Positions 20,888-36,733 of a stretch of 64,000 nt of DNA are shown piece by piece. How positions within the stretch are numbered: the first letter of the stretch is position 1; every line of letters starts with the position of its first letter. A program made the translations under genes and the position numbers. A model generated the notes under the pieces. That model ran no database searches and was not told where the DNA came from. It saw only the letters and a list, made by a program, of their open reading frames with translations. This stretch comes from Deltaproteobacteria bacterium (lineage in GTDB: Bacteria; Myxococcota_A; UBA9160; UBA6930): contig JAPPPQ010000016.1 in the NCBI GenBank assembly GCA_028817435.1, forward strand, positions 15,073-79,072, read 5' to 3'.

Positions 20888-22219
20888 ATGGAGTCCCGCT
20901 ATGCGTTTTTGCCGGGTGGCGGCCCGGAGCTGCAGATTGCAGGGGCGGAGGGCTGCTTTCTGATCAGCGCGCAGGGGGCGCGGATTCTCGATGCGTCTGC
21001 AGGCGCCATCGTTTCCAACATTGGCCACGGGCGCGAGGAGGTGGTGTCTGCGGCGGCCCGCGCCATGGCGCAGAACACCTATGTGCTGCCGACTTTCGAG
21101 ACGCCCGAGCGTCTGCGCCTGGTGCAGCGCCTGCAGGATCGCTGGCTGCCGGGCGGCATTCGCCGTTGCCTGTTCACCTGCGGCGGTTCGGAATCGGTGG
21201 ATATGGCGATTCGCATTGCGCGGCAGCACTTCGTTTCCAAGGGCGAGCCGCAGCGCTTTCGGGTAATTGGCCGGGCGCTCTCTTACCACGGCACGACGCT
21301 CTCGGGACTCGATGCGGGCGGGCACGAGAAGCGCCGCCGCGGTTTCGCGCCTTACTTTTCCGGCTCGCCCAAGTTGCCCGCCTGTTATCCGCTGCGCTGC
21401 GCGCATTGCCGGGACACTTGCAATCTGCACTGCGCCGACGCGCTGGAAGACGCGCTGCAACAAGCGGATCCCGCAACCGTGGCTGCGGTGATTCTCGAAC
21501 CGGTGGGCGGCTCCACCGCCGGTGCGCTGGATCCGCCGCGGGAATATCTGCCGCGGGTCGCCGAGATTTGCCGCCGCCACGGCGCGCTGCTGATTGCCGA
21601 CGAGGTGATGTGCGGCTTCGGGCGCACGGGCGCGCGCTTTGCCGTGGAGCACTTTGCCGTCGTGCCCGATATTCTGGTGAGCGGCAAGGGGCTGGCCAGC
21701 GGTTATCTGCCCATGGGGGGCGTGTTCGTCTCCGATTTTGTGGTGGAGCCCATTGCCGCTCAGGGGGATGAGGTGATGTTCTACACCTTCTCCGCGCATC
21801 CGGCGGCGTGCGCCGCGGCAGACAAAGTGCTCGAAATTATGGAGCGCGAAGAGTTGGTGCAGCGCGCCGCGAAGCAGGGCGAAGCGCTGCGCGCGCGCTT
21901 GCAGCACGCCTTTGCCGATCACCCCCATGTGGCCGAGATTCGCGGGCGCGGAATGCTGCAGGCGCTGGAATTGGTGCGCGACCGCAGCACGCTCGCACCC
22001 TTCGATGCATCGCTGCGGCTGACGAGCCGGGTGGTGGCCGCCGGGCTGGCCAATGGCGCCTTCTTCTACCCCGGCGGCTCGGGCGCAGCGCAGGATGTCA
22101 TTTGCCTGGGCCCGCCGCTCGTCATTTCCGATGACGAACTCGACCTGCTCGTGGCGGTGCTGCGCAAGAGTGTGGATGAGGTGTTGAATTCCCATGACAT
22201 GGAAGGAGGACGAAAATGA
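20888..22219 (+). CDS. Class-III (omega) pyridoxal-phosphate aminotransferase
   Basis: 443 aa. GGSESVDMAIRIAR, LLIADEVMCGFGRTG, SGKGLASGYLPMGG (PLP Lys context). Confidence 0.85.
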   Translation: MESRYAFLPGGGPELQIAGAEGCFLISAQGARILDASAGAIVSNIGHGREEVVSAAARAMAQNTYVLPTFETPERLRLVQRLQDRWLPGGIRRCLFTCGGSESVDMAIRIARQHFVSKGEPQRFRVIGRALSYHGTTLSGLDAGGHEKRRRGFAPYFSGSPKLPACYPLRCAHCRDTCNLHCADALEDALQQADPATVAAVILEPVGGSTAGALDPPREYLPRVAEICRRHGALLIADEVMCGFGRTGARFAVEHFAVVPDILVSGKGLASGYLPMGGVFVSDFVVEPIAAQGDEVMFYTFSAHPAACAAADKVLEIMEREELVQRAAKQGEALRARLQHAFADHPHVAEIRGRGMLQALELVRDRSTLAPFDASLRLTSRVVAAGLANGAFFYPGGSGAAQDVICLGPPLVISDDELDLLVAVLRKSVDEVLNSHDMEGGRK

Positions 22220-23436
22220 GCGAGTGGATCCGCCATCACTGGAGCCGCCGGCCCTGGTGGATGAATTGGATGCTGCTGTTCTGCGCTTTCATGGCGCTCT
22301 GGTATGTGCCCTTCTTCGATCTGCTCATCAAGGATGTGGCGCGGGACGAAGAGGTGTGGTTTGGCTACCGCTTCGAGGGCGTTTGGGCCAAGCTCACGGC
22401 GGTTCCGCACTGGTTTGTCTATGCCGCGGGCATGGTGGGCTTTTGGGGTATGCGCCCGTGGATGCATCCTTGGGCGAGCCTTTACCTGGCGCAGGTGGCT
22501 TTTTCTTTTGTGGTGTTTCCCTTTGCCTATCGCGGGGAGGACCCGCTGCAGTTGCAGCTCGGCAGCGCGCTGGTTTCGGGCGTAGTGTGGGGCGGGCTCA
22601 CCTGGCTGATGTGGCGTTCGCGCGCGCGCTTCCAAAATGCGCGGGGCTCGCTGCGCGAGCGCTACGGCGATTGGGCCGTGGTGACCGGCGCATCTTCCGG
22701 CATTGGCGCGGAGTTTGCGCGGGCGCTGGCGCGGGATGGCATTTCTTTGGTGCTCTGCGCCCGGCGCGAACAGCGGCTGCGCGAGCTGGCGGCAGAGCTG
22801 CAGGCCGAGTGCGGCATTGAGGCGCGCGTGGTGGCCTGCGATTTGTCGCGGGATTCCGGCGTGCGCGCGCTGCTCTCTGCCGTGTCCGGACTCGATATCG
22901 CCATGCTGGTGAACAACGCCGGTGTGGGCTGCCAGGGCCGCTTCGATCTGCAGGATGCCGAGCGGCTGCGCGCCATGGTGCGGCTCAATTGCGAAGCCCC
23001 CGTGGTGCTCTGCGCCGCGCTGTTGCCAAAGCTGCGCGCGCGCGGGCGCGGCGCGCTGATCTTCACCGGCAGCGTTTCGGGAGCGCAGCCGCTGCCGCTG
23101 CACGCCCTTTACAGCGCCACCAAAGTCTTCGACAACTTTTTGGGCGAGGCGCTGTGGGGCGAGCTGCAGGGCAGCGGCGTGGATTGCCTGTCGCTGCAGC
23201 CCGGCGCCACCGAGAGCGAGTTTCAGCAGACCGCCGGCGCGCTGGTGCACCCCGGCGAGTCCGCGCGCAAGGTCGTCGCCGTCGCCCTCGACGCGCTGGG
23301 GCACCGCCCCGCCGCCATTTCCGGCGTCTTCAACTGGCTGCGCGCCAATGCCGGTATGCGGATTCTCCCCCGCAGCCTGCTGGCCCTCGCCGCCAAAAAG
23401 GTGATGGCGCGTCAGACTCCGCCCGCGCTGCGCTAA
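22216..23436 (+). CDS. SDR oxidoreductase with a ~150-aa N-terminal four-helix membrane domain
   Basis: ATGA overlap with the aminotransferase gene. N-terminus is Trp/Phe-rich and hydrophobic (WWMNWMLLFCAFMALWYVPFF ...). Then AVVTGASSGIGAEFA, NNAG, YSATKVF. Confidence 0.75.
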   Translation: MSEWIRHHWSRRPWWMNWMLLFCAFMALWYVPFFDLLIKDVARDEEVWFGYRFEGVWAKLTAVPHWFVYAAGMVGFWGMRPWMHPWASLYLAQVAFSFVVFPFAYRGEDPLQLQLGSALVSGVVWGGLTWLMWRSRARFQNARGSLRERYGDWAVVTGASSGIGAEFARALARDGISLVLCARREQRLRELAAELQAECGIEARVVACDLSRDSGVRALLSAVSGLDIAMLVNNAGVGCQGRFDLQDAERLRAMVRLNCEAPVVLCAALLPKLRARGRGALIFTGSVSGAQPLPLHALYSATKVFDNFLGEALWGELQGSGVDCLSLQPGATESEFQQTAGALVHPGESARKVVAVALDALGHRPAAISGVFNWLRANAGMRILPRSLLALAAKKVMARQTPPALR

Positions 23437-23437
23437 T

Positions 23438-23827
23438 TCAGCGGGCGCGCTCTTCGGGCGTGGCGGCGCGCATGGCGTCCATGCTCCAGTAGGCGCGCAT
23501 GCTCGCAATGCGCCCGTCGTCGTTGAAGCGCAGCACGCTGATGATGTCCAGCGCCTGCTGCCCTTCGGGACCGATCAGCGCGACGATGGGCATGGCGGAT
23601 TCGTGCCCCGCCACGCACGCCGGGCCGGCCTGCTTCAGCGCGGTGCTGCCGAGCACCGGCGCGTAGAAGGCGCGGATTGCGTCGTGGCCGCGCTGCAGTT
23701 CCGAGCCGATCGGATCCTCAATGGTGGCGTCCTCGGCGTAGAGCGCGAGAATGCCCTCCAGATCTCCGCCGGTGACGAGTTGGGGGTAGCGTTCGTGGGC
23801 CTTTCGAAGCTGGTCTGCAGAAGCCAT
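23438..23827 (-). CDS. SnoaL/ketosteroid-isomerase-like (NTF2-fold) protein
   Basis: 129 aa. GDLEGILALYAEDATIEDPIGS...GHDAIRAFY is a typical SnoaL-like N-terminus. Confidence 0.7.
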   Translation of the reverse strand: MASADQLRKAHERYPQLVTGGDLEGILALYAEDATIEDPIGSELQRGHDAIRAFYAPVLGSTALKQAGPACVAGHESAMPIVALIGPEGQQALDIISVLRFNDDGRIASMRAYWSMDAMRAATPEERAR

Positions 23828-23843
23828 GGTTTCCTCCCTGGTT

Positions 23844-24410
23844 TCAGTTGGTCACAATCTGCTGGGCCTGCAACTCGATCATCTGGCCGAGCGTGCCCAG
23901 TCCGGTGAAGGCGACATCGGTGGCGACGAATGCCTGGATCAGGTCGTTGGTCATGGAAAGGGCGTCGCCGGGCCGCACCACCAGGGGGCCTTCGACGCGC
24001 CCGCGCAGCGGCTCTTCCAAAGACTCGAGGCGCGCGATCACCTCTTCGATGGAATCGAAGCTCGGGTAGCGGATTCCGAAGTGCGGAATGCCGTGGGGGC
24101 GGGTGCGGCGCTTTTCCAAATAGCCCTTCAGGCCCTGGGCGAGATTCTCGTCCCGGCCAAGGGCCGCCTGCAACGCCTTCTCCAGCGCGGCCTGCTCGGG
24201 GCGGATCTCGGAGAGGTAGAGGACATTGTTGATGATGTCCGTGAACTCGGCGTCTACGAAGGCGAAGGCGTAGGTGTCGTGCAGCTTCGTTTCGACCTTG
24301 CAGCCCAGGGCGCGGAAGAACTCTCCCGCGAGCTCCCGCTCGCCGGGTTGGTAGAGCATTTCCACATGGTTCAGCAGAATTCCGGGGTAGCGTCCGACAG
24401 GCTCTTTCAT
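23844..24410 (-). CDS. Hypothetical protein, possibly VOC (glyoxalase/dioxygenase) fold
   Basis: ATG 24410 preceded by GAGGAG. LNHVEMLYQPGERELAGEFFRALGC resembles a VOC beta-alpha-beta start. No firm motif. Confidence 0.4.
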   Translation of the reverse strand: MKEPVGRYPGILLNHVEMLYQPGERELAGEFFRALGCKVETKLHDTYAFAFVDAEFTDIINNVLYLSEIRPEQAALEKALQAALGRDENLAQGLKGYLEKRRTRPHGIPHFGIRYPSFDSIEEVIARLESLEEPLRGRVEGPLVVRPGDALSMTNDLIQAFVATDVAFTGLGTLGQMIELQAQQIVTN

Positions 24411-24420
24411 GGTGTTCTCC

Positions 24421-25434
24421 TCAGGCGCTTCCAAGTCGCTTCTCGATGGGCTCGAGCAGCTCCTCGTTGGCCGTTTGTCCCAGGTGAATCAGCATGCGCC
24501 GCTGGCGTTCGAAATCCGCGACGCGCGCCGGCGGATACGCGGGCTCCTGCTTTTCGCGCTTCAGCAGCGCTTTCAGGGGCGCGACAATTGTGTCGTAGCG
24601 GGGGTGCTCGAAGTAGGCGAGGCTGAAGCGATCTTGCGCCGAGCTTTGCGGCGGGACGAGCACTTTGTGGCTCGTCGCAAGCCAGCGGTCATTGGTGTAG
24701 CGCTGCATCAGGTCGCCCACATTCACGATGAAGCTGTCGCGCACCGCCGGCACCTCGTTCCAGCGATTCTCCCGGTCGAGAAAGTAGAGATCGGTGCGCG
24801 AGTCGTCGAAGATGCGCAGGATGGTGTAGAGATCCACATCGTTGTGGGCCTGGATGCGGACGCCGCCCTCGGGCGGAACGCCGCCGCCCGGGTAGAGAAT
24901 GGCCGTTGCGGTGCCGGTGTTGCCATTCAGGTTTTCGGTGAAAGCGCCCGGCGCCAACTGCAGCGCCTCTTCGAGAATCACCGCGAGTTTGTGCGAGACA
25001 TCCTCTACGCAGCGGAAGTAGGCGCGGGCCGCCGACTCGAAAGCCGCGTGCTGCGGCGGAAAGCGGTTGTCCGGAAAGTGCGCGCGCCCCTCGCTGCTGC
25101 CGTAGTAGGGATCGTTCTCGTCGCGCTCCCAGGCGCCGAAGCTGAAGCGCTCCATGCCCATCACGCTGACCACGCCGCTGGGCAGGCCGAAGTAGCCGCG
25201 CGCCACCTCGGGAGTCATCGGCCGGGCCCACGCCTGCTTCTCGCTCTCGGGCTCGGCGAAGAAGTCCTCCGCCGTGCTGCGGACAGCGCCGAGAATCTCG
25301 CCGGGGACGCCGTGCCCGCAGAGCACGAAGGTTCCCACCGTCGAGAGCCCCTCGTCCGCGCTGCGCGCGAGCTCGCGGTCGCCGCGCAGTTCCTCCGCGC
25401 TGCGGCCCTTCAGGTCGAGGATCGGAATCTCCAT
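24421..25434 (-). CDS. 2-oxoglutarate/Fe(II)-dependent oxygenase (isopenicillin-N-synthase family)
   Basis: 337 aa. MEIPILDL N-terminus, facial triad context IQAHNDVDLYTIL ... SHKV, and RFSLAYF. Confidence 0.8.
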   Translation of the reverse strand: MEIPILDLKGRSAEELRGDRELARSADEGLSTVGTFVLCGHGVPGEILGAVRSTAEDFFAEPESEKQAWARPMTPEVARGYFGLPSGVVSVMGMERFSFGAWERDENDPYYGSSEGRAHFPDNRFPPQHAAFESAARAYFRCVEDVSHKLAVILEEALQLAPGAFTENLNGNTGTATAILYPGGGVPPEGGVRIQAHNDVDLYTILRIFDDSRTDLYFLDRENRWNEVPAVRDSFIVNVGDLMQRYTNDRWLATSHKVLVPPQSSAQDRFSLAYFEHPRYDTIVAPLKALLKREKQEPAYPPARVADFERQRRMLIHLGQTANEELLEPIEKRLGSA

Positions 25435-25447
25435 GGATGGCCCTCCT

Positions 25448-26311
25448 TCAGGAAGGGGCGAGAAAGCCGTGCCCGGCCTCGCTCATTGAGTATCGCACAC
25501 GCTCGGCCAGGTCGAGGCGCAGGCCGGCGGCCTGGGCGGTTTCGACGGCGAGCTCCAGATCTTTGGCGGGGATTGCGCGGCTGGCCGCGCGCCCCGCCTG
25601 CGACACCATGTCCCAGTGCGCCACGGCCCAGTTGGAGGCAGAGCTGGCGGAGAGAATCGCCGCGGCGTCCGCGCTGCCAATGCCCAGGCGGGCGAGCAGT
25701 TGCATGGTCTCGTGGGTGGCCTGCATCTGCACCAGGGCCAGCGCATTGGCCGCGAGCTTCACGGACTGGGCGTCGCCCACCGCGCCGACATGGAAGATTG
25801 CGCTGCCCGAAATCTCGAGCGCCTCGCGCACCTGCGCCAGCGCCTCGGGCTCGCATCCCACAAGGGTCGTGACTTCGCGCCGCGCCGCGCTCTGCGGCGC
25901 GCTGTCGGGCCCCGTTACCGGCGCATCCACCACGGCGACGCCTGCGCGCTGCGCCTCTTTGGCAATGGCCGCGCAGACCTGCGCCCCGACGGTGCTGTGA
26001 ATAATCACCGCCTGGCCGGGCCGCGCGCCGGCCAAAAATCCCTCTGCCGGATCCAGCAGAGCGGCCTCGAGCTGCTCCCCGGTCGCCACCGCCACCTGCA
26101 CCATATCCACCTCGCCCGCCAGCCCCCGCGCTGTCTCCGCCACCGCCGCCCCCGCCGCCTGGAGCCGCTGCACCGCCGCGCCATCCGGATCGCAGACCAC
26201 CACCGTCCGCCCATCCTCCAGCGCATTGCGCGCCATCGGCGCACCCACCGCCCCAAGCCCGAGAAACCCGAGCCGCAACTCACTGGAGTTCTTTTCCACA
26301 CGGTCCTGCAT
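25448..26311 (-). CDS. NAD(P)-dependent 3-hydroxyisobutyrate/6-phosphogluconate-dehydrogenase-like oxidoreductase
   Basis: The ATG at 26311 overlaps the receptor stop (TGATG). Contains LGFLGLGAVGAPMARN (Rossmann motif) and KLAANALAL. Confidence 0.75.
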   Translation of the reverse strand: MQDRVEKNSSELRLGFLGLGAVGAPMARNALEDGRTVVVCDPDGAAVQRLQAAGAAVAETARGLAGEVDMVQVAVATGEQLEAALLDPAEGFLAGARPGQAVIIHSTVGAQVCAAIAKEAQRAGVAVVDAPVTGPDSAPQSAARREVTTLVGCEPEALAQVREALEISGSAIFHVGAVGDAQSVKLAANALALVQMQATHETMQLLARLGIGSADAAAILSASSASNWAVAHWDMVSQAGRAASRAIPAKDLELAVETAQAAGLRLDLAERVRYSMSEAGHGFLAPS

Positions 26312-28632
26312 CAGTTCACCATGCTGCCGAAGCTCCATTCGATTTCGATTCCGTAGGTGCGCGGCGGGCCGAAACCCTGCACAACCCAAGGAAGAGTGCG
26401 GCCCGAGCTGGTGTAGTAATCAATGCCGAACGGCCTGTAATGCTCATCGAGAATGTTCTTTCCAAAGAGCGAGATGTCAAAAGTGCCGCCCAGGCCGGGA
26501 AGCCTGGCGTCGTAAAGTGTGAGCCTCGCATTCACGACTTCGTAGGGATCGTCTCCCGCCAGAGGCTCGTCCCCGTTTTGCAGCAGAGTTTCGTCCTGCC
26601 AGTAGAAGTCGGATCGGAGCACCATCCGCCCGAAACTGAATTCGCCGATTGTGTATTCGATTCCGGCGCTCACATTGTTTTCGGGAGTCTGTCCGAAATT
26701 CCGGGTATCCGCAACATTCACTCCGTTGTCAATGAATTCCTTGTAATCGGCCTTTGACAGCCCATAGCTCGCATTGATGAGCAGATTGTCGAGGGGAGCC
26801 CAGAGAAGCTCCAACTCCAATCCGTTGACCTCGGCCCGCCCCGCATTCACTGTGGTGGAGCCGATGGTTCCATTGGACAAAACGGCGAGGGCGGTTCGCT
26901 GCAGGTCTTCATAATCCATCAGGAAACCGGCGAGGTTCAGGCGCAGGCGGTTTCCCCAGCCCTGGAATTTGATTCCCGCCTCGTAGGAGAGAACGGTCTC
27001 CTCGTTGTAACCGGTGTCCAGAAGCGCCTGTGTGTTGGCTCGCCCATTGAAGCCGCCTGCCGTGTAGCCCTTGGAGATGGAAACATAGGCATTGAGGCCA
27101 TCGTTCACCCGGAAGCGAATGCGGCCCGTCGGGGTGAAGGCGCTGAAATCCCTCTGCGCCCTTCCGAGGAAGGGGCAGGTGTTTCGGCAATTGCGGTTGT
27201 CTGTGCCGACTTCCTTGTCTTCCCAGGTTTGCCGCAGGCCGGCCTCGAAGCTCAGCCGTTCGTCCAGAACCGGTGGCGTCCAGGTGAAGTGACCGAACAG
27301 CGCCCAGGCATCGGTCTCAATGTGAATCTTGCGGGGGCCGGTTCCGGCCGTGGCGCCAAAGACCTCGTTCAGCGCCCATTGGTAGCTGAATTGATCTCCC
27401 TTCTCCCGGAGGAAAAATGCGCCGAGCACATAATCGAATTGGCCGAAGCCGCCATCCGTGGACCCCACCAGGTTGAATTCCTGGTTCCACCAGGAGATAT
27501 CGTCTCCGGACACATTTCCGAAGATGATCAGAGGCGTTCCGTCCCGGTCAATGAACTTGGAACTCTCGACAGAGCGGTAGCCGGTCACCGATTTGAAAAT
27601 CGTTCCGCCTGCGGACTCACCGGAGAGAGTCAAGCCGCCTCCGAGCACCTCCAGCTCGTCCTCGTTGTGGCTGCAGGGGCCTCTGTCGGGATAGTTGCTG
27701 CCCTCGCAGCCATCCACATTCACATAAGCGGCGCGCTCCGGATTGGCGTAGGAAGAGATGAGGGGGACGACTCTCATGGCTGTGGAATGCGTGGCATCCG
27801 CAAACACATGGGTCAACTGATACTCTGTCTGGCTCTCCTTGGCGTCTGTGTAGTCCACGCTCAGATCTGCAGTCAGGCCGCCGGTCTGCCAGCGCAGAGC
27901 GCCGCGCAGGGCAATTCGGTCTCTGCTCTCTGTGTCCTCTCCAATGTTGTTTTTGTAGAAGCCGTCCCGATTGAGGCTCGCTATGGAAAGGCTGCCACCG
28001 AGAAATCCCGAGCCGCTGTGCGGATCGCCCAGCAGCGGAAACTCCTGGTAAATTCTGAAATCGGTCTGTGAGAATTTCCCGGCAGTGGCGGTGAACTCGC
28101 TGCCCCATCCTCCGGAGGGCTTGCGGGTGATGAAATTGATGGCGCCCGCCGAGGAATTGCGGCCATACAAATCTCCCTGCGGGCCGCGCAACACCTCGAC
28201 GCGGGTCAACTCGACCACATCTATGAGGTTGCCCTGGCTTCGCCCCCAGTAAACCCCGTCAATGTAGACGCTTGCCGGCTGATCCCTGGTGATGAGGCCG
28301 GCGTCGGACTGGTTGATGCTGCGCATATTGATGAAGAAGCCGTCTCCCTGGGCGTTTGCCGCCAAGTTGACATTCGGAATGTAGTCGGTGAGGTCAAGCG
28401 CGTTGCGGATGCCGCGCGCCCGGATGCCTTCCTCCGTCAGTGCGGTGATCGAAATGGCGGTGTCCTGCAAGGTGTTCTCACGCTTTTGTGCGGTCACCAC
28501 GATCTCCTCAATCACCCCCCCCCCCCCCGGGGGGACATCGGTGGATTCGATCTCTTGGGCCTGCACCGGGGGGTGAACAACCAGGGCCAGGGCAACGGCG
28601 ATCCATGCGTGGTTTCGCGTATGGAAACTCAT
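26311..28632 (-). CDS. TonB-dependent receptor
   Basis: ATG 28632 with AGGGAGG RBS. MSFHTRNHAWIAVALALVVHPPVQAQ signal. TonB box/plug IEEIVVTAQKRENTLQDTAISITAL. Barrel ending ...EIEWSFGSMVN. Confidence 0.9.
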   Translation of the reverse strand: MSFHTRNHAWIAVALALVVHPPVQAQEIESTDVPPGGGGVIEEIVVTAQKRENTLQDTAISITALTEEGIRARGIRNALDLTDYIPNVNLAANAQGDGFFINMRSINQSDAGLITRDQPASVYIDGVYWGRSQGNLIDVVELTRVEVLRGPQGDLYGRNSSAGAINFITRKPSGGWGSEFTATAGKFSQTDFRIYQEFPLLGDPHSGSGFLGGSLSIASLNRDGFYKNNIGEDTESRDRIALRGALRWQTGGLTADLSVDYTDAKESQTEYQLTHVFADATHSTAMRVVPLISSYANPERAAYVNVDGCEGSNYPDRGPCSHNEDELEVLGGGLTLSGESAGGTIFKSVTGYRSVESSKFIDRDGTPLIIFGNVSGDDISWWNQEFNLVGSTDGGFGQFDYVLGAFFLREKGDQFSYQWALNEVFGATAGTGPRKIHIETDAWALFGHFTWTPPVLDERLSFEAGLRQTWEDKEVGTDNRNCRNTCPFLGRAQRDFSAFTPTGRIRFRVNDGLNAYVSISKGYTAGGFNGRANTQALLDTGYNEETVLSYEAGIKFQGWGNRLRLNLAGFLMDYEDLQRTALAVLSNGTIGSTTVNAGRAEVNGLELELLWAPLDNLLINASYGLSKADYKEFIDNGVNVADTRNFGQTPENNVSAGIEYTIGEFSFGRMVLRSDFYWQDETLLQNGDEPLAGDDPYEVVNARLTLYDARLPGLGGTFDISLFGKNILDEHYRPFGIDYYTSSGRTLPWVVQGFGPPRTYGIEIEWSFGSMVN
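28515..28534. repeat. Homopolymer palindrome C14G6 (coding strand C6G14) inside the receptor gene
   Basis: Counted directly: C at 28515-28528 and G at 28529-28534. It encodes PPGGGG between the signal peptide and the TonB box. Confidence 0.9.
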
Positions 28633-29393
28633 GTCGCCTCCCTTTCGATGGTGGTGTTGGAGTGGACGGGGCCCATGATGCGGTGGAGGTAGTCGGTGCC
28701 TTCGGCGGCGGGGACGAACCAGCCGGTGGGGCACATGGTGAGCACTTCGACGAAGGAGAAGCCTTCGCCGCGCAACTGGGTCTCGAAGGCGCGGCGCAGC
28801 ATGCGCTTGGTTGCGGCGACGCCGGCGGCGTTGTGCACCGAGCCGCGCGCGGCAAAGGCGGTTCCGGAGAGGGAGCCGATGAGGTCGGTCATCAGGATCG
28901 GGTGGCCGTGGTAGGCGGGGTCGCGCCCCTCCAGAGAGGTCTTGGTGCGCTGTCCCGGCGCGGTGGTTGCGGTCATGTGTCCGCCGGTTTCTCCGAAGAC
29001 GCCGTTGTTCAGCAGCACGCAGGTCACATTCTCGGCGCGGGCCGCGGTGTGGATCACCTCTTGCAGGCCCTCGTTGGCCATGTCGCCGTCGCCCTGGATG
29101 GTGAAGAGCAGGGAATCCGGGCGCATGCGCTTTGCGCCGGTGGCGACGGAGGGCGCGCGGCCGTGCAGGGCCTGGATCAGGTCCAGATCCATCAGGCTCG
29201 CCAGCGCGGTGGAGCAGCCGATTCCCATCACGCCGATGGCGCGCTGGGCGAGGCCGAGCTCTTCAATCACCTCGAGCAGCGAGCGCAACACCAGCGGCTC
29301 CCCGCAGCCGGGACACAGGTCGTGGTCGGTGGAGAGCTGCAGGGTGGGCTTGAATGCGCCGGTCTTCGTGGCGGTCTGGGTCTGCTGAGTCAT
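28629..29393 (-). CDS. korB: 2-oxoacid:ferredoxin oxidoreductase beta (TPP-binding) subunit
   Basis: 254 aa. DHDLCPGCGEPL, GDGDMANEG (TPP motif). Its stop overlaps the receptor ATG (ATGA at 28629-28632). Confidence 0.85.
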   Translation of the reverse strand: MTQQTQTATKTGAFKPTLQLSTDHDLCPGCGEPLVLRSLLEVIEELGLAQRAIGVMGIGCSTALASLMDLDLIQALHGRAPSVATGAKRMRPDSLLFTIQGDGDMANEGLQEVIHTAARAENVTCVLLNNGVFGETGGHMTATTAPGQRTKTSLEGRDPAYHGHPILMTDLIGSLSGTAFAARGSVHNAAGVAATKRMLRRAFETQLRGEGFSFVEVLTMCPTGWFVPAAEGTDYLHRIMGPVHSNTTIEREAT

Positions 29394-30517
29394 GGTTGCA
29401 CCTCTTTTCCTTGCAGGGCTGCGTTGATGCGCCTGCGAATTTCTCCTGCGTTGAGCAGGGGGCCGACGCCGAAACCGGCGGAATCTGAGGAGATGCCGCC
29501 GATGGGAACGACGGGCGCATGGCCGAGAATGGACAGGCGGACATCGTCAATCATCTGCCCGGCGTTCTGTTCCAGCACGGCGACCCGCGCCGCGGACTGC
29601 GCCGCCTTGGCCAGCGCCTGGCTCGGAAAGGGCCATAGAGTCACGGGCCGGAAATATCCGGTGCGCAACCCTTCGGTGCGGAGTTCCCGCACCACATGCC
29701 GCGCAAAGCGCGCGACGCTGCCGAAGGCCACCACCAGAAGCTCGGCGTCCTCCACAAACTCGGCTTCCCAGCGCGATTCTTCCCGATCCATGGCGTCGTG
29801 CTTCGCCTGCAGGCGCTTCCAGAAAGATTCGGGATCAATCCCCTTCTCCCCCGGCGTCATGCCGATGGGGTTCAGGTTGCGCGGTGCGCCGCTGCCGCCG
29901 CGCGATCCGTCCACGGCCCAGTCTTTTGCGGAAGCCCGCGCTGCGTTCTCCGCGCCCGCCGCATCCGCTTCGCCCGCGGCATCGGCCGTCGGCACGGCTA
30001 CGGCTTCTGCGGTGTGCGCCAGCAGGTAATCGCCGTAAATCAGCACGGGATTGCGCCAGCGGTCTGCCAATTGAAAAGCCCGCTGGGTGAGCTGCACCGC
30101 CTCTTTCACATCAATGGGCGCCATGACCAAATGCCGGTAATCGCCGTGGCCGCCGCCCCGGGTGGCCTGGTAGTAATCGCCCTGGCCGCGCGCCATGTTG
30201 AAGACGACGAGGGGCAGCTCGGCCCGGGTGGCCTCCGAAAGCGATTCCTGCATGAGCGACAGGCCCTGGCCCGTCGAGCCGGTAGCCGCGCGCGCGCCAG
30301 TGGCGGCTGCGCCCCAGGCCATGCCCACCGCTTCGATCTCGCTTTCGGCATTGACGCAGACGCCGCCGGCCTGCGGCAGCTTCGCCGCAAAGCTCTCGAG
30401 CAACTCGGTGAAGGGAGTCATGGGATAGCCGGCGAAGAAGCGGCAGCCGCAGGCAATCGCCGCCTCGGCAATGGCCTCGGAGCCCTCCATCAAGCGCCGC
30501 TTTGCGGGCTGCGTCAC
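29390..30517 (-). CDS. korA: 2-oxoacid:ferredoxin oxidoreductase alpha subunit
   Basis: GTG 30517 overlaps the ferredoxin stop (GTGA); an alternative ATG lies at 30490. MEGSEAIAEAAIACGCRFFAGYPMTPFTE, ESEIEAVGMAWGAA. Confidence 0.8.
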   Translation of the reverse strand: MTQPAKRRLMEGSEAIAEAAIACGCRFFAGYPMTPFTELLESFAAKLPQAGGVCVNAESEIEAVGMAWGAAATGARAATGSTGQGLSLMQESLSEATRAELPLVVFNMARGQGDYYQATRGGGHGDYRHLVMAPIDVKEAVQLTQRAFQLADRWRNPVLIYGDYLLAHTAEAVAVPTADAAGEADAAGAENAARASAKDWAVDGSRGGSGAPRNLNPIGMTPGEKGIDPESFWKRLQAKHDAMDREESRWEAEFVEDAELLVVAFGSVARFARHVVRELRTEGLRTGYFRPVTLWPFPSQALAKAAQSAARVAVLEQNAGQMIDDVRLSILGHAPVVPIGGISSDSAGFGVGPLLNAGEIRRRINAALQGKEVQP

Positions 30518-30753
30518 GGCGTCCCCCGGCGCGGGCTCTGGTATTGAAACACCTCGAAGCAGAAATCCGGGCAGACCAGCAGACACGCGCCGCAGCCGGT
30601 GCAGCCCGGCAGCAGTTCCGGGTAGTGCGCGCCCATGGCGTTGCGCGTCTCTGTCATGCGCAGCACGCGGGGCGGGCAGGCCGGGATGCACAGCTCGCAG
30701 CCCTTGCAACGCTCTGTGGCGATTTCCACCGTGCCGCGGCTCCCGTTCTTCAT
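30514..30753 (-). CDS. Small 2x[4Fe-4S] ferredoxin (OFOR delta-type subunit)
   Basis: 79 aa from ATG 30753. CKGCELCIPACP and CTGCGACLLVCP. Confidence 0.75.
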   Translation of the reverse strand: MKNGSRGTVEIATERCKGCELCIPACPPRVLRMTETRNAMGAHYPELLPGCTGCGACLLVCPDFCFEVFQYQSPRRGTP

Positions 30754-31319
30754 GCGCTGCTTCCTCCCGCTGCGGCCGCCGGGTTTTCCCCAGGCCATGC
30801 GAAGCCCAACTGCAGGGCCGTCTTGTTCTGCGGCAAATGCTGACGCCGGTAGGGGGGCAGCGATTCCTCCATGCCGTGGATCAGCGCATCCAGCCCCACC
30901 GCGCCGGAGGCGGCGGCAAATGCGCCGAGCAGCGCCAGGGAAACCGCCAGCGGCGAGCCCGCCTCGACGGCCAGGCGATTTGCGGGCACGGCCAGCGCCC
31001 CCGCCGCGGGCGCTTCGAAAAGGTCGCCGTTTACCACCGCCAGCCCCTGTTTGCGGAGCTTGGCCTGCACCGGCGGCCAGTAGCGCGGGCTCACCCCCAA
31101 AGCGGCCCAGGCCCGCGAGACGATGGGCGGTGAAGAGATCGGCTCCTCTGCGATGATCACGGTGGCGCCGGTATCGCCGCCGCGCATGGTGCCGCCGTAG
31201 GTGCCGAGGCACATCACCTCGCGCCCTTCGTGAATGGCGGCGAGGGCCAGCACCCGGGCGGCGAGCTGCACACCCTGCCCGCCGATTCCCGTCAGCAAAA
31301 TCTCCCGCTCCATCAGCAC
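30750..31319 (-). CDS. korC: 2-oxoacid:ferredoxin oxidoreductase gamma subunit
   Basis: 189 aa. ILLTGIGGQGVQLAARVLALAA is the typical gamma-subunit P-loop-like motif. Confidence 0.75.
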   Translation of the reverse strand: MLMEREILLTGIGGQGVQLAARVLALAAIHEGREVMCLGTYGGTMRGGDTGATVIIAEEPISSPPIVSRAWAALGVSPRYWPPVQAKLRKQGLAVVNGDLFEAPAAGALAVPANRLAVEAGSPLAVSLALLGAFAAASGAVGLDALIHGMEESLPPYRRQHLPQNKTALQLGFAWPGENPAAAAGGSSA

Positions 31320-31990
31320 GCCGCTCCGCTGCGGCGCAGGCCGGCCCAGGCGAAGTCCTCGACGCGCCGCGCGTCTTCCCGGGAGGCCGCGCCGCCCTCA
31401 ATCAGCCGCGCCTGCACCCAGCCCATGGCCAGGTGGTAGAGGCTCTCGGCGTCGCGCTCGGGCACAACGCCCGGCAGTTCGCCGCTGGCCGCCGCGCGCT
31501 CCAGCACCTCGCGCAGCGGGGCGGTGACGCGCCGCTGGGATTGCGCCATTTCCTCGGCCCAGGCGCTGTCGAGCTGCCCCTGCCCCAGCACAAAGGGCCG
31601 CGTCGCCTCGGCGGCGTCGGGGTTCAGCGCCTGTTCCAGCAGCCCGCGCAGCCACTCGCGAATGCGGCCTTCGCTGCTCTGCGCCCGGTTCATGCGGCGG
31701 GCCAGGGTGCGGGCCAGCAGCGCAATGCCCTCGTCGAGGACCGTCACCAGCAGCTCGTGCTTGGAGCGGAAGTGGCGGTAGAAGGCCTGGTTGGAGAGCC
31801 CGGCTTCGCGCACAATCTCGCTCACCCGGGGCTGGTGGATGGTGCCGGAGCTGCGAATCAGGCGCAGCGCCGCCTCTACCAGCCGCATGACCTCGCCCAG
31901 GGCGGCCTCCCGGCGGCGTTCCAGGCTACGCTCTGCTGCCCGGGAAAGCGGGGAGCTGCCCTTCTCGAAAGCGAGAACCTTGTTCTCCAT
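31313..31990 (-). CDS. TetR-family transcriptional regulator
   Basis: ATG 31990. HTH region VSEIVREAGLSNQAFYRHFRSKHELL. It overlaps korC by 7 nt on the same strand. Confidence 0.8.
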   Translation of the reverse strand: MENKVLAFEKGSSPLSRAAERSLERRREAALGEVMRLVEAALRLIRSSGTIHQPRVSEIVREAGLSNQAFYRHFRSKHELLVTVLDEGIALLARTLARRMNRAQSSEGRIREWLRGLLEQALNPDAAEATRPFVLGQGQLDSAWAEEMAQSQRRVTAPLREVLERAAASGELPGVVPERDAESLYHLAMGWVQARLIEGGAASREDARRVEDFAWAGLRRSGAAC

Positions 31991-32016
31991 GCGGGGAATG
32001 CTATGCTGAAAAAACC

Positions 32017-33534
32017 ATGCCGTCAACTCAATTCCGGCACTTTTTGATCGGCGACATCTTTCGGCAGAACGCCGCCATTGTCCCCGAGGGGCTTGCGGCG
32101 GCCCTCGGGGGCGAATCCCTCAGCCACGCCGAGCTGGACGCCCGGGGCAACCGGCTGGCCCATGCGTTGCGGGGCCTCGGCATCGGCCACCTGGACCGCG
32201 TCGCCTGCTGGGCGGATACCTGCCTGGAAGTGCTGCCGCTGTTTGCGGCCTGCGCCAAATTGGGCGCGGTGTTCGCCCCGGTCAACGCGCGTCTCGGGCC
32301 GGCGGAAGCCCTGCAGCCGGTGGAACTGGCGCGCCCGGCGCTGCTGGTGGCGGATGGCGAGCGCCTGGCGGGGGCCGCAGAGCTGGCCGGCCAGACGGGC
32401 GCGCCGCTCGCCTGCCTGCACGGCCCGCCGGGCGGCGGCGGGCTCGACTTGGCCGCCGCCGCCGTCCGCGGCCCCGCCGCAGACCTGAGCGAGCCCGCCC
32501 TGCGCGAGGGCGATCCCCATGTGATTTTCTTCACCAGCGGCAGCACGGGGAAGCCGAAGGGCGTCGTGCTTTCGCACCGCGCCAACTGGCTGCGCAGTTT
32601 TCAGGGGCCGTTCCGGGATGATCCCGAGCGGGGGGTGTGCATGTTTCCGCTCTATCACATGGCGGGTTTTTCGCTGGCGCTTTCGGCGTGGCAGACCCGG
32701 GGCAGCATTGCGCTGGTGCACTCGCCCACCCCCGAGGCGCTGCTCTCCGCCGTCCAGAGCACCCGGGCCAACCGCCTCTACTGCATTCCGCTGGTGTGGT
32801 CGCGCATTTTGGCAAGCGATACGGGCCGCTACGATCTCTCGAGTTTGCGCGAGCTGGATACGGGCACCTCGGCGGTCCCCATTGAGTTGCTGCGCGCGCT
32901 GAAAGAGCGCTTTCCCGGCACGCGCACGCGCACCTACTACGGCTCCACCGAGGCGGGCTCCTGCTCCACTTTGTCCGACGCCGATGCGCTGCGAAAGCCG
33001 GGCAGCGTGGGGCTGGCCGCGCCGGCCGCAGCGCTGCGCATTAGCGCCGAGGGCGAGATTTGCGTGCGCAGCCCTTACATGATGGACGGCTACTTCGAGA
33101 ATCCCGAGGCGACGGCGGAGGCGCTGCGCGATGGCTGGTATCACACCGGCGATCTCGGCGCGCTGGACGAAGAGGGCTACCTGCAGGTCACCGGGCGCAT
33201 GCGCGAGGTAATTCGCAGCGGCGGCGAGAGCGTCTCGCCGCTGGAGGTGGAGGCCGCTTTGGCCGGCGCAGCGGGGGTGCGCGAGCTGGCGGTGATCGGC
33301 GTTCCCGACGCCGACTGGGGCGAGTTGGTCTGCGCCGTGGTGGTGCCCGAGCCCGGTGCAAAGGTGACTCTGGAAGCGCTGCAAGCGGTGTGCGAGGGGC
33401 GCATTGCCGGCTTCAAGAAGCCGCGCCGCATTGCATTCGCCGAAGCGCTGCCGCGCACCGCCGCCACCGGACAGGTGCAGCGCGGGCTGCTCGCCGAGCA
33501 GTTGGCGCAGGCCCGCGCCGGAGCCGCGCAGTGA
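32017..33534 (+). CDS. AMP-dependent acyl-CoA synthetase/ligase (class I adenylate-forming)
   Basis: 505 aa. FFTSGSTGKPKGV, YGSTEAG, YHTGDLG, GFKKPRRI. Confidence 0.85.
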   Translation: MPSTQFRHFLIGDIFRQNAAIVPEGLAAALGGESLSHAELDARGNRLAHALRGLGIGHLDRVACWADTCLEVLPLFAACAKLGAVFAPVNARLGPAEALQPVELARPALLVADGERLAGAAELAGQTGAPLACLHGPPGGGGLDLAAAAVRGPAADLSEPALREGDPHVIFFTSGSTGKPKGVVLSHRANWLRSFQGPFRDDPERGVCMFPLYHMAGFSLALSAWQTRGSIALVHSPTPEALLSAVQSTRANRLYCIPLVWSRILASDTGRYDLSSLRELDTGTSAVPIELLRALKERFPGTRTRTYYGSTEAGSCSTLSDADALRKPGSVGLAAPAAALRISAEGEICVRSPYMMDGYFENPEATAEALRDGWYHTGDLGALDEEGYLQVTGRMREVIRSGGESVSPLEVEAALAGAAGVRELAVIGVPDADWGELVCAVVVPEPGAKVTLEALQAVCEGRIAGFKKPRRIAFAEALPRTAATGQVQRGLLAEQLAQARAGAAQ

Positions 33535-34481
33535 GCGCAAAGCTCCGCGTGCTGAGCCATCTGCCGCTGGATTTGATTGCGCGGGTGCCCGAGGCGCATC
33601 CCGATGTGGAGCTGGTGGTGATTCCCGAAGAGGGCGAGCTTGCGCCGGGGCTGCGCGGCGATGTGCTGCTCACCATGACCTGGGATTTGCCCAACACCGC
33701 ACAGGTGCTGAAGCGGGGCATTCGCTGGGTGCACACCTACGGCACCGGCGTGGACCGCTTTCCCTTCGAGGCGCTGGGCGGCGCGGCGCTCACCTGTTCG
33801 CGCGGCGCGAGCGCCGTGCCGATTTCGGAATGGGCGCTGGCGGTCATGCTCGCCTTCGAGAAAGAGCTGCCGGAGCGCTGGATTCACGAGCCCGGCGAGC
33901 CCTGGACGGTGGTGCGCCCACTCGGCGGTCTGCACGGGCGGCGGCTCGGCATTGTCGGCTTCGGCGGCATCGGGCAGGCGCTGGCGGACCGCGCGCTGCC
34001 CTTCGGCATGCGCATTCGCGCCCTGCGCCGCAGCCCCGCGTGCGCGGCCGGGGAAGGGGGCGAAGGAGTCGAGTTTGCGCGCGATCTCGGCGAACTCATG
34101 GCTTTTGCCGATCACCTGGTGCTCGCCGCTCCCGCCACCCGGGAGACCCATCACATGATTGGGCGCGCCGCTTTGGCCCGCGCCCGGCAGGGGCTGCACT
34201 TGGTGAACATTGCGCGCGGCAGCTTGGTGGACCAGGACGCCCTGCGCGAGGCGCTGGACGCGGACCGCATTGCCCGCGCCAGCCTCGACACGGTGACCCC
34301 CGAGCCGCTGCCGGCGGGCCACTGGCTCTACACCCATCCAAAGGTGCGGCTCTCGCCGCACATCTCGTGGTCCGGCCCCGGCAGTTTTGATGCGCTCATC
34401 AACCCCTTCATCGAAAACCTGCGCCGCTTCAAGGCGGGAGAAAAGCTGATCCACCAGGTGAACACCGCGCTCGGCTACTGA
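33531..34481 (+). CDS. D-isomer-specific 2-hydroxyacid dehydrogenase family protein
   Basis: GTG 33531 (GTGA overlap with the ligase stop). GIVGFGGIGQALADRA, NIARGSLVD, SPHISW. Confidence 0.8.
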   Translation: MSAKLRVLSHLPLDLIARVPEAHPDVELVVIPEEGELAPGLRGDVLLTMTWDLPNTAQVLKRGIRWVHTYGTGVDRFPFEALGGAALTCSRGASAVPISEWALAVMLAFEKELPERWIHEPGEPWTVVRPLGGLHGRRLGIVGFGGIGQALADRALPFGMRIRALRRSPACAAGEGGEGVEFARDLGELMAFADHLVLAAPATRETHHMIGRAALARARQGLHLVNIARGSLVDQDALREALDADRIARASLDTVTPEPLPAGHWLYTHPKVRLSPHISWSGPGSFDALINPFIENLRRFKAGEKLIHQVNTALGY

Positions 34482-34541
34482 GCGCGCAGAGAAGGCGAGC
34501 TTGCCAGCGGCGCGGGGCTGGGGCACACTGGCGCACCTTCC

Positions 34542-35738
34542 ATGCACATCGAATTCACCCCCGGACAGCGGGCGCTGCGCGCCGAGTTGCGCGCCTATTA
34601 CCGCGAGCTCTTTGCGGGAGACCTGCGGCAGCGCCTGGACGCCGACTGGGAGCAGCTCGGCGGCGCGGCCTTCCGCGAGGCGGTGGGGCGCATGGGCAGC
34701 GATGGCTGGCTCACGCTGGGCTGGCCGGTGGAGTTCGGCGGGCAGGGCAAGAGCCACCTGGACCAGTTTATCTTCTGGGACGAGACCTACCGCGCGCGCG
34801 CGCCGCTGCCGCTGATCACCGTGAACACCATCGGCCCCATGATCATGCAGTGGGGCAGCGACGAGCAGAAGGCGGAGTTTCTGCCGCGCATTGCGCGGGG
34901 CGAAATCGTCGTCGCCGTCGGCTACACCGAGCCGGGCGCGGGCACCGATCTCGCCTCGTTGCAGACCCGGGCGCGGCGCGATGGCGACGAGTGGGTGATT
35001 GACGGGCAGAAGGTGTTCACCACCCACGCGGGCGACGCCGATTACATCTGGCTGGCCTGCCGCACCGATCCCGATGCGCCGAAGCACAAAGGCATTTCCA
35101 TCGTCATGGTGCCCACCGCCGCGCCGGGGTTTTCCCGCACGCCCATCCGCACCATCGGTGGCGAACTTACCTGGGCCACTTTTTACGAGGGCGTGCGCGC
35201 GCCGCTGGCCAACACCGTCGGGCCGGTGCACGGCGGCTGGGGCCTCATTACCTCGCAGCTCAACTTGGAGCGCATCACCCTGGCCATGCCGGCCTCGCTC
35301 AGCCGGGTGTTCGAAGAAGTGTGGGCCTGGGCGGCGCGGGAAGAGCCGGGCGCGGGCGCGCCGTTGCAAGAAGAATGGGTGCAGCGCGCGCTGGCCCGGG
35401 TGCACGCGCGTCTCGAAGCATTGAAGCTGCTGAACTGGCGCGGCGCATGGCTGCTGGATCAGGGCGCGCAATCCGAACATGGCGCGCAGACCATGGCCTT
35501 CGCCTCGGCGGTCAAGGTCTTCGGCACCGAGACGGTGATCGCCTGCTACCGGGAACTGCTGGAGATTACGCGCGGCGCGGGGTTGTTGCGGCGCGGCGAG
35601 CCCGGCGCGCTCTGCGACGGCTTGCTCGAGAGCGCCTACCGCCTTTCCATGGTCAACACCTTCGGCGGCGGGGTGAACGAGGTGCAGCGCGACATTATCG
35701 CCGCGGCGGGACTCGGCATGCCGCGGGCGCGGCGCTAG
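34542..35738 (+). CDS. Acyl-CoA dehydrogenase family protein
   Basis: 398 aa. YTEPGAGTDLASL, FGGGVNEVQRDII. Confidence 0.85.
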   Translation: MHIEFTPGQRALRAELRAYYRELFAGDLRQRLDADWEQLGGAAFREAVGRMGSDGWLTLGWPVEFGGQGKSHLDQFIFWDETYRARAPLPLITVNTIGPMIMQWGSDEQKAEFLPRIARGEIVVAVGYTEPGAGTDLASLQTRARRDGDEWVIDGQKVFTTHAGDADYIWLACRTDPDAPKHKGISIVMVPTAAPGFSRTPIRTIGGELTWATFYEGVRAPLANTVGPVHGGWGLITSQLNLERITLAMPASLSRVFEEVWAWAAREEPGAGAPLQEEWVQRALARVHARLEALKLLNWRGAWLLDQGAQSEHGAQTMAFASAVKVFGTETVIACYRELLEITRGAGLLRRGEPGALCDGLLESAYRLSMVNTFGGGVNEVQRDIIAAAGLGMPRARR

Positions 35739-35740
35739 CC

Positions 35741-36733
35741 ATGCTCACCCCGGAACAGAAGCAGGACCTCGAGACGCAGATCCGCGCCTTTGTGGGCCGT
35801 CCCACCGGCCCGCCCAGCGTGGGGCGCGACCTGGTGAACGAGCCGATGATCCGCCAGTGGTGCGATGCCATCGGCGATGCGAATCCCGTGTATCTGGACC
35901 CGGAAGCCGCGGCCCGGAGCGTGCACGGCGGCATTGTGGCGCCGCCCATGATGCTGCAGGCGTGGATTCTGGAAGGCTGGTCCATGCACCGCGGCCACGG
36001 CGAGCCGCGCGACGAGCAGCAGCGGTTGCACAAGATTCTCACCGATGCGGGTTACACCGGCGTGCTCGGCACCGATACCGAGCAGACTTTCACGCGCTAC
36101 CTGCGCCCCGGCGACCAGGTGAGCGCAGAGACCGTAATCGCCGATATTTCGGAGGAGAAGGCCACCGGCGTCGGTGTCGGCTACTTCATCACCACCCGCA
36201 CTACTTTTTGCGATGCAAAGGGCATTGAGCTGGGCACAATGAACTTCCGCGTGCTGAAGTTCATTCCCAAGGAAGCGCCGCAGAGCGCCGCTGCCAACGC
36301 AGATGCCGCAGATGCGCAGCCGCAAAAGCCCACGCGCATCAAGCCGCCGCTTTCGCACGACAACGCCTGGTGGTGGCGGGCCGTCGCAGAGGGCACGCTG
36401 CTGCCGCTGCAGCGCTGCGCGCAGTGCCAAAAGCTGCGCCACCCGCCGCGCCCCATGTGCGATGACTGCGGCGCAACGCAGTGGGATCACATTGCGGCCA
36501 GCGGGCGCGGCGCGCTGCACAGCTACACGGTGATTCACCACCCGCGCTTCCCCGGCTACGAGTTTCCCATTCTGGCCGCGCTGGTGGATCTGCCGGAGGG
36601 CTGCCGCATCGTCTCCAATGTGGTGGACTGCGAGCCCGGCGCGCTGCGCATTGGCATGGCGCTTCAGGCTTTCATTCACGAGGACGAGGACGGCTTCAAG
36701 CTGCCGCTCTTTCGCCCGGCGGAGCCGGCCTGA
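35741..36733 (+). CDS. Fusion of an N-terminal MaoC-type (hot-dog) hydratase domain and a C-terminal DUF35 Zn-ribbon/OB-fold domain (ChsH2-like architecture)
   Basis: ATG 35741. MIRQWCDAIGDANPVYLDPEAA...IVAPPMM (MaoC_dehydrat_N-like). Then CAQCQKLRHPPRPMCDDCG...GALHSYTVIH (DUF35). Confidence 0.8.
   Translation: MLTPEQKQDLETQIRAFVGRPTGPPSVGRDLVNEPMIRQWCDAIGDANPVYLDPEAAARSVHGGIVAPPMMLQAWILEGWSMHRGHGEPRDEQQRLHKILTDAGYTGVLGTDTEQTFTRYLRPGDQVSAETVIADISEEKATGVGVGYFITTRTTFCDAKGIELGTMNFRVLKFIPKEAPQSAAANADAADAQPQKPTRIKPPLSHDNAWWWRAVAEGTLLPLQRCAQCQKLRHPPRPMCDDCGATQWDHIAASGRGALHSYTVIHHPRFPGYEFPILAALVDLPEGCRIVSNVVDCEPGALRIGMALQAFIHEDEDGFKLPLFRPAEPA

Follow-up and report, generated by a model that had tools for sequence, protein, structure and literature searches.

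A layered, TetR-led gene cluster in an uncultured marine Myxococcota bacterium places an apparently recent TonB-dependent receptor gene behind a four-subunit 2-oxoacid:ferredoxin oxidoreductase

Why should the gene of an outer-membrane receptor follow directly on the genes of a cytoplasmic iron-sulphur enzyme? The question is raised by a ten-gene unit on the minus strand of a 64,000-nt stretch of DNA (positions 15,073 to 79,072 of contig JAPPPQ010000016.1, assembly GCA_028817435.1, a bacterium of the phylum Myxococcota; hereafter the window), in which the genes of a 2-oxoacid:ferredoxin oxidoreductase (OFOR) run into a gene for a TonB-dependent receptor. OFORs convert 2-oxoacids to acyl-CoA with ferredoxin. 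The initial annotation regarded the unit as a single, dedicated device for uptake plus catabolism. In the reading we prefer, with a probability of about 0.6, a marine, aerobic and uncultured member of the Myxococcota carries a composite catabolic operon under TetR control, assembled in three layers and serving a proposed route from import to acyl-CoA. The first layer is an old, conserved core, TetR-korGDAB, which encodes a four-subunit OFOR dependent on thiamine pyrophosphate (TPP) and Fe-S clusters. The second is a lineage-specific tail of four enzyme genes. The third and, judged from sequence, latest layer is the receptor, with a predicted ribosome-binding site in the 3' end of korB. The coupling of OFOR and receptor arose recently by accretion and is restricted to this lineage; it does not represent a conserved functional pair.

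Open reading frames (ORFs) and searches against Pfam and NCBIfam gave the following order on the minus strand, which agrees with that of the initial annotation. A TetR-family regulator (31313..31990; TetR_N and TetR_C_11) comes first and is followed by the OFOR subunits gamma (korG, 30750..31313; POR, 3.9e-26; 43-64% identical to the orthologues of relatives), delta (korD, a ferredoxin, 30514..30753; Fer4_7, with matches to OorD and OGOR_delta), alpha (korA, 29390..30490; POR_N, 1.4e-36, and PFOR_II, 2.1e-20) and beta (korB, 28629..29393; TPP_enzyme_C, and alignment to PDB 6n2n_B). Next come the TonB-dependent receptor (26311..28632; Plug, 4.9e-17, and barrel, 1.7e-31), a dehydrogenase of the HIBADH (beta-hydroxyacid) family (25448..26311; NAD_binding_2 and NAD_binding_11), a 2-oxoglutarate (2OG)/Fe(II) oxygenase (24421..25434; DIOX_N and 2OG-FeII_Oxy), a VOC-fold metalloenzyme candidate of 188 amino acids (23844..24410; no Pfam match, recognised with AF2 and Foldseek) and, as the last gene, a SnoaL/NTF2-like protein (23438..23827; SnoaL_2, 1.6e-13).

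All ten genes are co-directional, and neighbours either overlap or lie no more than 23 nt apart. TetR and gamma overlap by 1 nt (TGATG), ATGA joins gamma to delta, alpha to beta and also beta to the receptor (28629-28632), and the receptor passes into the HIBADH-like gene through TGATG at 26311; gaps of 13, 10 and 16 nt follow the HIBADH, oxygenase and VOC genes, respectively. Both receptor junctions and the upper limit of 16 nt for the later gaps had been read correctly before. The claim that overlaps join the first seven genes held except between delta and alpha, where a 4-nt overlap exists only with the alternative alpha start GTG 30517, while the orthologues of alpha align from ATG 30490 and leave a gap of 23 nt. 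Ten tightly packed genes in a row indicate one operon, and a single transcription unit is likely. In a crude gene model of the genome based on the G+C content of third codon positions (GC3), an overlap of 1 or 4 nt is possible for about 19% of co-directional pairs, and about 43% either overlap or are separated by at most 20 nt. Start/stop overlaps are thus common genome-wide, and the ATGA between korB and the receptor is unremarkable in itself.

Conservation of this order was studied in orthologous loci of 80 species, mostly marine Myxococcota metagenome-assembled genomes (MAGs) with some Acidimicrobiia and Binatia, 71 of which extend at least 600 nt past korB and were informative for what follows it. 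The korA orthologues of the 80 species are 56-81% identical. A TetR orthologue lies upstream of korG in 55 of the 80 loci. Within 10 kb, 59 loci have an orthologous acyl-CoA ligase gene and 37 a gene for a D-2-hydroxyacid dehydrogenase. The conserved unit is TetR-korGDAB, usually accompanied by the acyl-CoA ligase and often by the D-2-hydroxyacid dehydrogenase, often in divergent orientation. A co-directional receptor gene after korB was present in none of the 71 informative loci, three of which have an unrelated receptor on the opposite strand at a distance of 2-3.5 kb, and homologues of the four tail enzymes were found at none of the 80 loci. Large co-directional ORFs after korB were considered as possible missed receptors; those checked encode GGDEF-EAL, sulfatase, molybdopterin oxidoreductase, hydantoinase and similar proteins. 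Gene content downstream of korB is otherwise variable among the relatives and often convergent. In the two closest genomes with enough flanking sequence (G004 and G014), korB is directly followed by the aminotransferase and short-chain dehydrogenase/reductase (SDR) genes that converge on the unit in the window, so that the 5.2 kb at 23438-28632 represent an insertion relative to the ground plan of the family. The adjacency of OFOR and receptor was conserved nowhere among the 71 loci, a result that the initial annotation had itself named as an argument against its operon. Outside the phylum, korGDAB with 56-59% alpha identity occurs in MAGs of Acidimicrobiia, Binatia and Actinomycetota (L142-L153), in some together with TetR and/or the acyl-CoA ligase. 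Its occurrence in aerobic heterotrophs of other phyla suggests that the module is old or has been transferred across phyla.

The receptor has the features of a TonB-dependent transporter: a signal peptide (MSF..VQA/QE), a TonB box (EEIVVTA), a Plug and a 22-strand barrel domain. It has no STN signalling domain. Assignment to the siderophore, haem or B12 classes was not supported, as the TIGR01783 score is 129.9 against a cut-off of 223.5 and the other models score far below theirs. The gene is preceded by a Shine-Dalgarno-like motif. Its GC3 is 0.74, compared with about 0.79-0.90 in the other nine genes of the unit and 0.83 in two other receptor genes of the window. The nearest relatives other than near-identical copies are 40-44% identical, and a metagenome scan with the receptor gave just one match, of 27% identity and without relevance. 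More distant relatives with a named source come from degraders of hydrocarbons, steroids and aromatic compounds. Two receptors of estrogen degraders, not identified as EdcT, are 32-33% identical, and a 29% homologue on a plasmid of Novosphingobium resinovorum heads an operon with aldehyde dehydrogenase and SDR genes, near genes for TetR, an acyl-CoA dehydrogenase (ACAD) and MaoC. Another plasmid-borne homologue, of Novosphingobium sp. PP1Y, carries no annotation.

Two peculiarities of the receptor gene were recorded. On the coding strand, a homopolymer pair C6G14 (28515..28534) encodes PPGGGG between signal peptide and TonB box. Six of 15 listed near-identical environmental receptors begin just after this tract (728-742 amino acids) and one has PPPPPGGGG there; the differences may stem from variation in tract length, contig breaks or sequencing errors in homopolymers, and an 8258-nt JGI contig has clear indel noise. 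At the other end (26311-26340) the protein continues four to five residues past the usual terminal aromatic residue of the barrel. Members of the subfamily end in G-[ST]-M-L (GSMVN in the window). An origin of the five extra residues by fusion was rejected, because the whole subfamily ends in F-G-[ST]-M-L.

A recent arrival of the receptor is suggested by near-identical environmental copies of its neighbours. Two junction alleles occur within the 90%-identity cluster of korB, and likewise within that of the dehydrogenase. In allele A, that of the window, korB ends in ..NTTIEREAT and the dehydrogenase gene starts with MQDRVEKNSSELRLGF (MQDRVEKNSS); in allele B, korB ends in ..NTTIENSGNREAAIP (..IENSGNREAAIP) and the dehydrogenase gene starts with MTTAGAELRLGF (MTTAGA). 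The two alleles differ exactly at both receptor junctions, and the ends of allele B are compatible with a direct ..CCATGACC.. overlap that would leave no receptor between the two genes. Genes were assigned to the same environmental contig when the nucleotide sizes of their contigs were identical. By this measure, a 60636-nt contig carries korB and the dehydrogenase of allele B as well as the oxygenase, VOC, SnoaL and SDR genes, and no receptor matching it was among the 15 of 36 cluster members listed. Contigs of 27680, 26349 and 11443 nt likewise bear korB and dehydrogenase proteins of allele B. Many receptor contigs measure just 2.4-2.8 kb, as expected if assemblers break at a polymorphic insertion. 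These data suggest that the receptor is an insertion polymorphism among near-identical genomes and that it forms the newest layer, a lineage-restricted insertion between korB and the dehydrogenase.

The deviant GC of the receptor gene and the many short receptor contigs elsewhere, in a genome that is itself a MAG of 67 contigs, could also mean that the korB-receptor junction was produced by assembly. Both receptor junctions, however, are exact overlapping stop/start pairs, with the Shine-Dalgarno-like motif in front of the receptor start. Moreover, korB and receptor occur on contigs of the same size in independent assemblies (11146 nt, Logan; 8258 nt, JGI), and a 31450-nt ENA contig unites receptor, HIBADH and SnoaL genes. 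Such co-location in independent assemblies makes misassembly unlikely, and we regard an artefact as very improbable.

A genuine insertion need not be functionally related to its surroundings. The receptor might be an unrelated passenger at a permissive junction that borrows the promoter and ribosome-binding site of the operon. Its cargo (for example an iron, haem or cofactor complex) would then bear no relation to the OFOR substrate, or would serve solely as a source of metal for the Fe-S and Fe(II) enzymes. The restriction of the korB-receptor adjacency to this lineage, the foreign composition seen in GC3 and the probable polymorphism among near-identical genomes would fit a passenger, as would the best NCBIfam match, which is to a siderophore-receptor subfamily although far below the cut-off, and the ferrochelatase gene beside a homologue in the related genome G013. 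On the other hand, the arrangement is retained in several independent assemblies, and the distant named relatives come from hydrocarbon, steroid and aromatic degraders, one of them being encoded in a catabolic operon beside genes for an aldehyde dehydrogenase and an SDR. TonB-dependent receptors in catabolic operons are also well documented (PMC6874591, PMC1790865, PMC7793797). Control by iron, which the initial annotation had named as an outcome that would speak against its interpretation, left no sign in the sequence: the best Fur-box-like match has 11 of 19 positions and does not exceed the 12 of 19 of the window background, and the STN domain is lacking. A passenger is thus an unlikely explanation, yet one to be taken seriously.

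The second layer, the HIBADH-like, oxygenase, VOC-fold and SnoaL genes, is specific to the lineage as well. In the oxygenase, H197-x-D199, H256 and R269-x-S271 are invariant in the alignment; a double-stranded beta-helix domain, the HxD...H triad and the RxS motif for 2-oxoglutarate place it in the 2OG/Fe(II) class. It is a rare protein: a collection of 5.8 billion proteins contains only five relatives of more than 45% identity, 400 sampled genomes of the phylum gave no match at E<=1e-40, and homologues in 193 genomes of the order reach at most 32% identity. The VOC protein found no match at E<=1e-30 in the same sample of the phylum. For this 188-aa protein the earlier label 'VOC-like' is supported by the predicted structure (AF2, pLDDT 91), for which Foldseek returned a probability of 1.0 to 2qqz, 1xqa, FosA, glyoxalase I and bleomycin-resistance folds in the PDB; the model contains a two-helix insert. 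Four residues, H15, E68, H110 and E179, do not vary in the alignment. They sit on predicted strands 1, 4, 5 and 8 or directly beside them, an arrangement like the four-ligand pattern of glyoxalase I, and are candidate metal ligands. The HIBADH-like dehydrogenase remained below all equivalog cut-offs.

The tail genes occur together elsewhere. Genome G156, of another family in the same order, has the order TetR-korG-korD-korA-korB-SnoaL-VOC-HIBADH, without receptor and without oxygenase, and its VOC (51%) and HIBADH (55%) proteins are the closest relatives of those of the window in the 193 genomes of the order. Because of this korB-SnoaL-VOC-HIBADH arrangement, these three tail enzymes probably work with the OFOR. 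More distant VOC homologues adjoin SnoaL-type genes, and two of the five oxygenase relatives lie on contigs (10139 and 35169 nt) that match those carrying VOC homologues of 71-76% identity; overall, the oxygenase and VOC homologues sharing these contigs are 63-76% identical. No receptor of the window's subfamily is recorded for either contig. Together with G156, the shared contigs indicate that VOC, SnoaL, dehydrogenase and oxygenase genes travel together and joined korB at least twice; the receptor has not done so. As a side observation, korA of the G156 locus (L063, G156:C2, 7455-8565) is split into two ORFs, with tblastn pieces corresponding to residues 1-134 and 158-364, which reflects a frameshift, pseudogene formation or faulty assembly.

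At its distal end the unit meets a converging operon. Its SnoaL gene and the converging SDR gene have stops only 1 nt from each other (23436-23440), which leaves no room for a terminator between the two operons. The SDR of the window (22216-23436) has 406 amino acids. In two relatives (L035, 10035-10442; L037, 11652-13284), a separate gene of about 140 amino acids after the aminotransferase corresponds to the N-terminal membrane part of this SDR, which may be a fusion.

All four OFOR subunits look intact. The alpha subunit has POR_N and PFOR_II, the beta subunit keeps the TPP/Mg motif GDGD and the four cysteines of the proximal [4Fe-4S] cluster (CPGCG, GIGCS and CPTGW in the alignment to 6n2n_B), the delta ferredoxin has two CxxCxxCxxxCP motifs for two [4Fe-4S] clusters, and gamma has POR, as required for a four-subunit OFOR. 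Subunits, gene order, cofactor motifs and domains are those of OFORs of the porGDAB/vorGDAB/korGDAB type, of which 6n2n, 8ys5 and 1yd7 are solved. Unlike these, the present orthologue group lies below every NCBIfam equivalog cut-off (the best model for alpha is VorB-like, with 320.6 bits against a cut-off of 399), so that a substrate class could not be assigned. It also differs in that its members belong to aerobic heterotrophs, stand under TetR control and are accompanied by genes for acyl-CoA ligase and 2-hydroxyacid dehydrogenase, a setting that suggests a peripheral catabolic role for the group.

The matches of the subunits to generic KOR/VOR/POR models would suit a central-metabolism enzyme, a 2-oxoglutarate or pyruvate:ferredoxin oxidoreductase with incidental neighbours. 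All equivalog cut-offs were missed, however, and the TetR-led operon is paired with acyl-CoA ligase and 2-hydroxyacid dehydrogenase across the 80-species set. Outside the window, the same contig carries another OFOR gene of the alpha type (G000:C9:106286-106924; 640-aa open frame; POR_N, 1.6e-52). This fused-type OFOR is probably the central-metabolism enzyme and could fill that role, and we consider a central function of the window's OFOR improbable. The host genome, a 2.8-Mb MAG that is 92% complete, encodes a haem-copper oxidase (COX1) and TonB; hence an OFOR beside O2-dependent enzymes is not paradoxical. With an oxygen-respiring, TonB-encoding host and a second, fused-type OFOR on the contig, the four-subunit OFOR of the window is most likely a peripheral catabolic enzyme.

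Upstream of the unit, the start codons of the TetR gene and of the divergent acyl-CoA ligase gene are 26 nt apart (31991-32016). With 40% GC, this stretch ranks among the four 40-nt windows of the region that are richest in AT. A putative sigma-70-like promoter, recognised by consensus match only (TTGACG-17-TAGCAT, 31998..32026, minus strand), ends 8 nt ahead of the TetR ATG, implying a leaderless or near-leaderless mRNA, and its predicted -35 element overlaps the start codon of the ligase gene, so that promoters here would be leaderless or embedded. It is the only promoter-like site ahead of the unit; one more lies inside the receptor gene (27551-27524). An inverted repeat that might serve as TetR operator was not found in 31940-32080, nor were Rfam elements detected. 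The initial annotation had pointed out that internal promoters or terminators would speak against a single operon. Such sites do not exceed chance: shuffles predict 0.9 promoter-like sites, close to the total of two, and 6.7 terminator-like sites, more than the five observed.

The conserved core is flanked on the plus strand by its divergent partners, an acyl-CoA (AMP) ligase (32017-33534) and a D-2-hydroxyacid dehydrogenase (about 33531-34481), behind which ACAD, ChsH2-like, MaoC, Ltp-like and thiolase genes extend to about 44812. The whole set (32017-47453) reads ligase, D-2-hydroxyacid dehydrogenase, ACAD, ChsH2-like hydratase (MaoC-N, Zn ribbon and OB), ACAD, MaoC, Ltp-like thiolase-fold protein, thiolase, SDR, DUF35, two thiolase-fold proteins and a family III CoA-transferase. 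The set resembles that for steroid side chains (igr/Chs/Ltp) and would equip the cell to degrade acyl-CoA side chains that are branched or cyclic.

From these components the following course can be proposed. An inducer, the substrate or an early product, would be sensed by TetR and release it from the short divergent control region. The receptor would carry an organic substrate that is scarce and probably hydrophobic or cyclic through the outer membrane, and oxygenase, VOC enzyme, SnoaL protein and dehydrogenase would turn it into a 2-oxoacid; the 2-hydroxyacid dehydrogenase may likewise yield a 2-oxoacid from a 2-hydroxyacid. The OFOR would then convert the 2-oxoacid to acyl-CoA by oxidative decarboxylation, and the product would be broken down by the enzymes of the adjacent ACAD, ChsH-like, Ltp-like and thiolase genes. 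Of this reading, the genes present, their layering and the missing conservation are observed, while co-transcription, substrate and reaction order are inferred.

A comparable design is known from estrogen degradation. Operon OpB of the edc cluster in Novosphingobium tardaugens NBRC 16725 encodes the extradiol dioxygenase EdcB, a VOC-domain protein, EdcC, an ACAD, two MaoC hydratases and the TonB-dependent receptor EdcT (PMC7793797). EdcC, of the indolepyruvate-oxidoreductase (IOR) family, acts on the meta-cleavage product, a 2-oxoacid, and yields a CoA ester by decarboxylation; EdcT shows 91-fold induction, and growth is slower when it is deleted (PMC7793797). A TetR gene lies nearby, and the divergent OpA encodes a cytochrome P450, a ChsH2-like hydratase, Ltp, thiolases and an ACAD (PMC7793797). 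At the level of operon design, the earlier statement that no precedent is described does not stand, since OpB combines the OFOR-family gene edcC with O2-dependent enzymes and edcT (PMC7793797). The window shares VOC, OFOR, receptor and O2-dependent enzyme with OpB and TetR with its surroundings, a likeness by component list only, and its plus strand resembles OpA in ChsH2-like hydratase, Ltp-like protein, thiolases and ACADs. The two systems differ in several respects. EdcC is a single polypeptide, whereas the OFOR of the window is of the four-subunit GDAB type. The edc receptor gene is the last of OpB, but that of the window directly follows korB. The edc oxygenases are a P450 and an extradiol dioxygenase, whereas the window has a 2OG oxygenase, and Pfam searches found neither a P450 nor a two-domain extradiol dioxygenase within the ten-gene unit. 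Finally, the edc host is a sphingomonad and not a Myxococcota. The window thus departs from edc in its type of OFOR, in a junction that joins korB directly to the receptor, in its 2OG oxygenase and in its phylum. The CUT loci of Xanthomonas (PMC1790865) and DdvT of Sphingobium sp. SYK-6 (PMC6874591) are further examples of receptors in catabolic loci. As in the window, a non-siderophore receptor is encoded there with cytoplasmic enzymes and a regulator for an imported carbon source; these systems handle sugars or lignin-derived biphenyls and have no OFOR, which the window has. A literature search found nothing specific on an OFOR-receptor operon in Myxococcota.

A bolder interpretation goes further and sees in the locus an independently evolved, Myxococcota-specific counterpart of the seco-steroid/aromatic route. 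In it, an oxygen-tolerant four-subunit OFOR would replace the hydrolase or IOR-type enzyme and would take a 2-oxoacid that oxygenase, VOC, SnoaL and dehydrogenase make from a scarce imported compound, with a receptor insertion that is still polymorphic in the wild. The locus would then offer a natural snapshot of the recruitment of an uptake gene into a catabolic operon. This we consider doubtful.

Several observations weigh against the composite catabolic operon as proposed here. None of the enzymes of the unit reaches an equivalog cut-off, and G156 is the only other genome that links the tail enzymes to korB. The receptor-less allele is deduced from protein ends and contig sizes, with 15 of 36 receptor copies listed, and the scan for promoters and terminators is weak evidence. 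The 40% receptor homologue of G013 adjoins lipoamide dehydrogenase and ferrochelatase genes and not catabolic genes; with this neighbourhood in view, a metal or cofactor cargo of the receptor is conceivable. As to the single dedicated unit of the initial annotation, a role in uptake and catabolism stays plausible, and transcription as one unit is likely in view of the packing and the one leading promoter-like site; in origin, the unit is a composite with a recent receptor.

Nothing established is overturned by these results, since receptors in catabolic operons and an OFOR-family enzyme beside oxygenases are both already documented. If the proposed reading is correct, the locus would record stepwise growth of an operon, with the receptor as its newest and possibly still polymorphic part. 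The TetR-korGDAB module, widespread in uncultured aerobic marine Myxococcota and also present in MAGs of Acidimicrobiia and Binatia, would then mark an uncharacterised route that would feed 2-oxoacids to beta-oxidation without a lipoate-dependent dehydrogenase complex.

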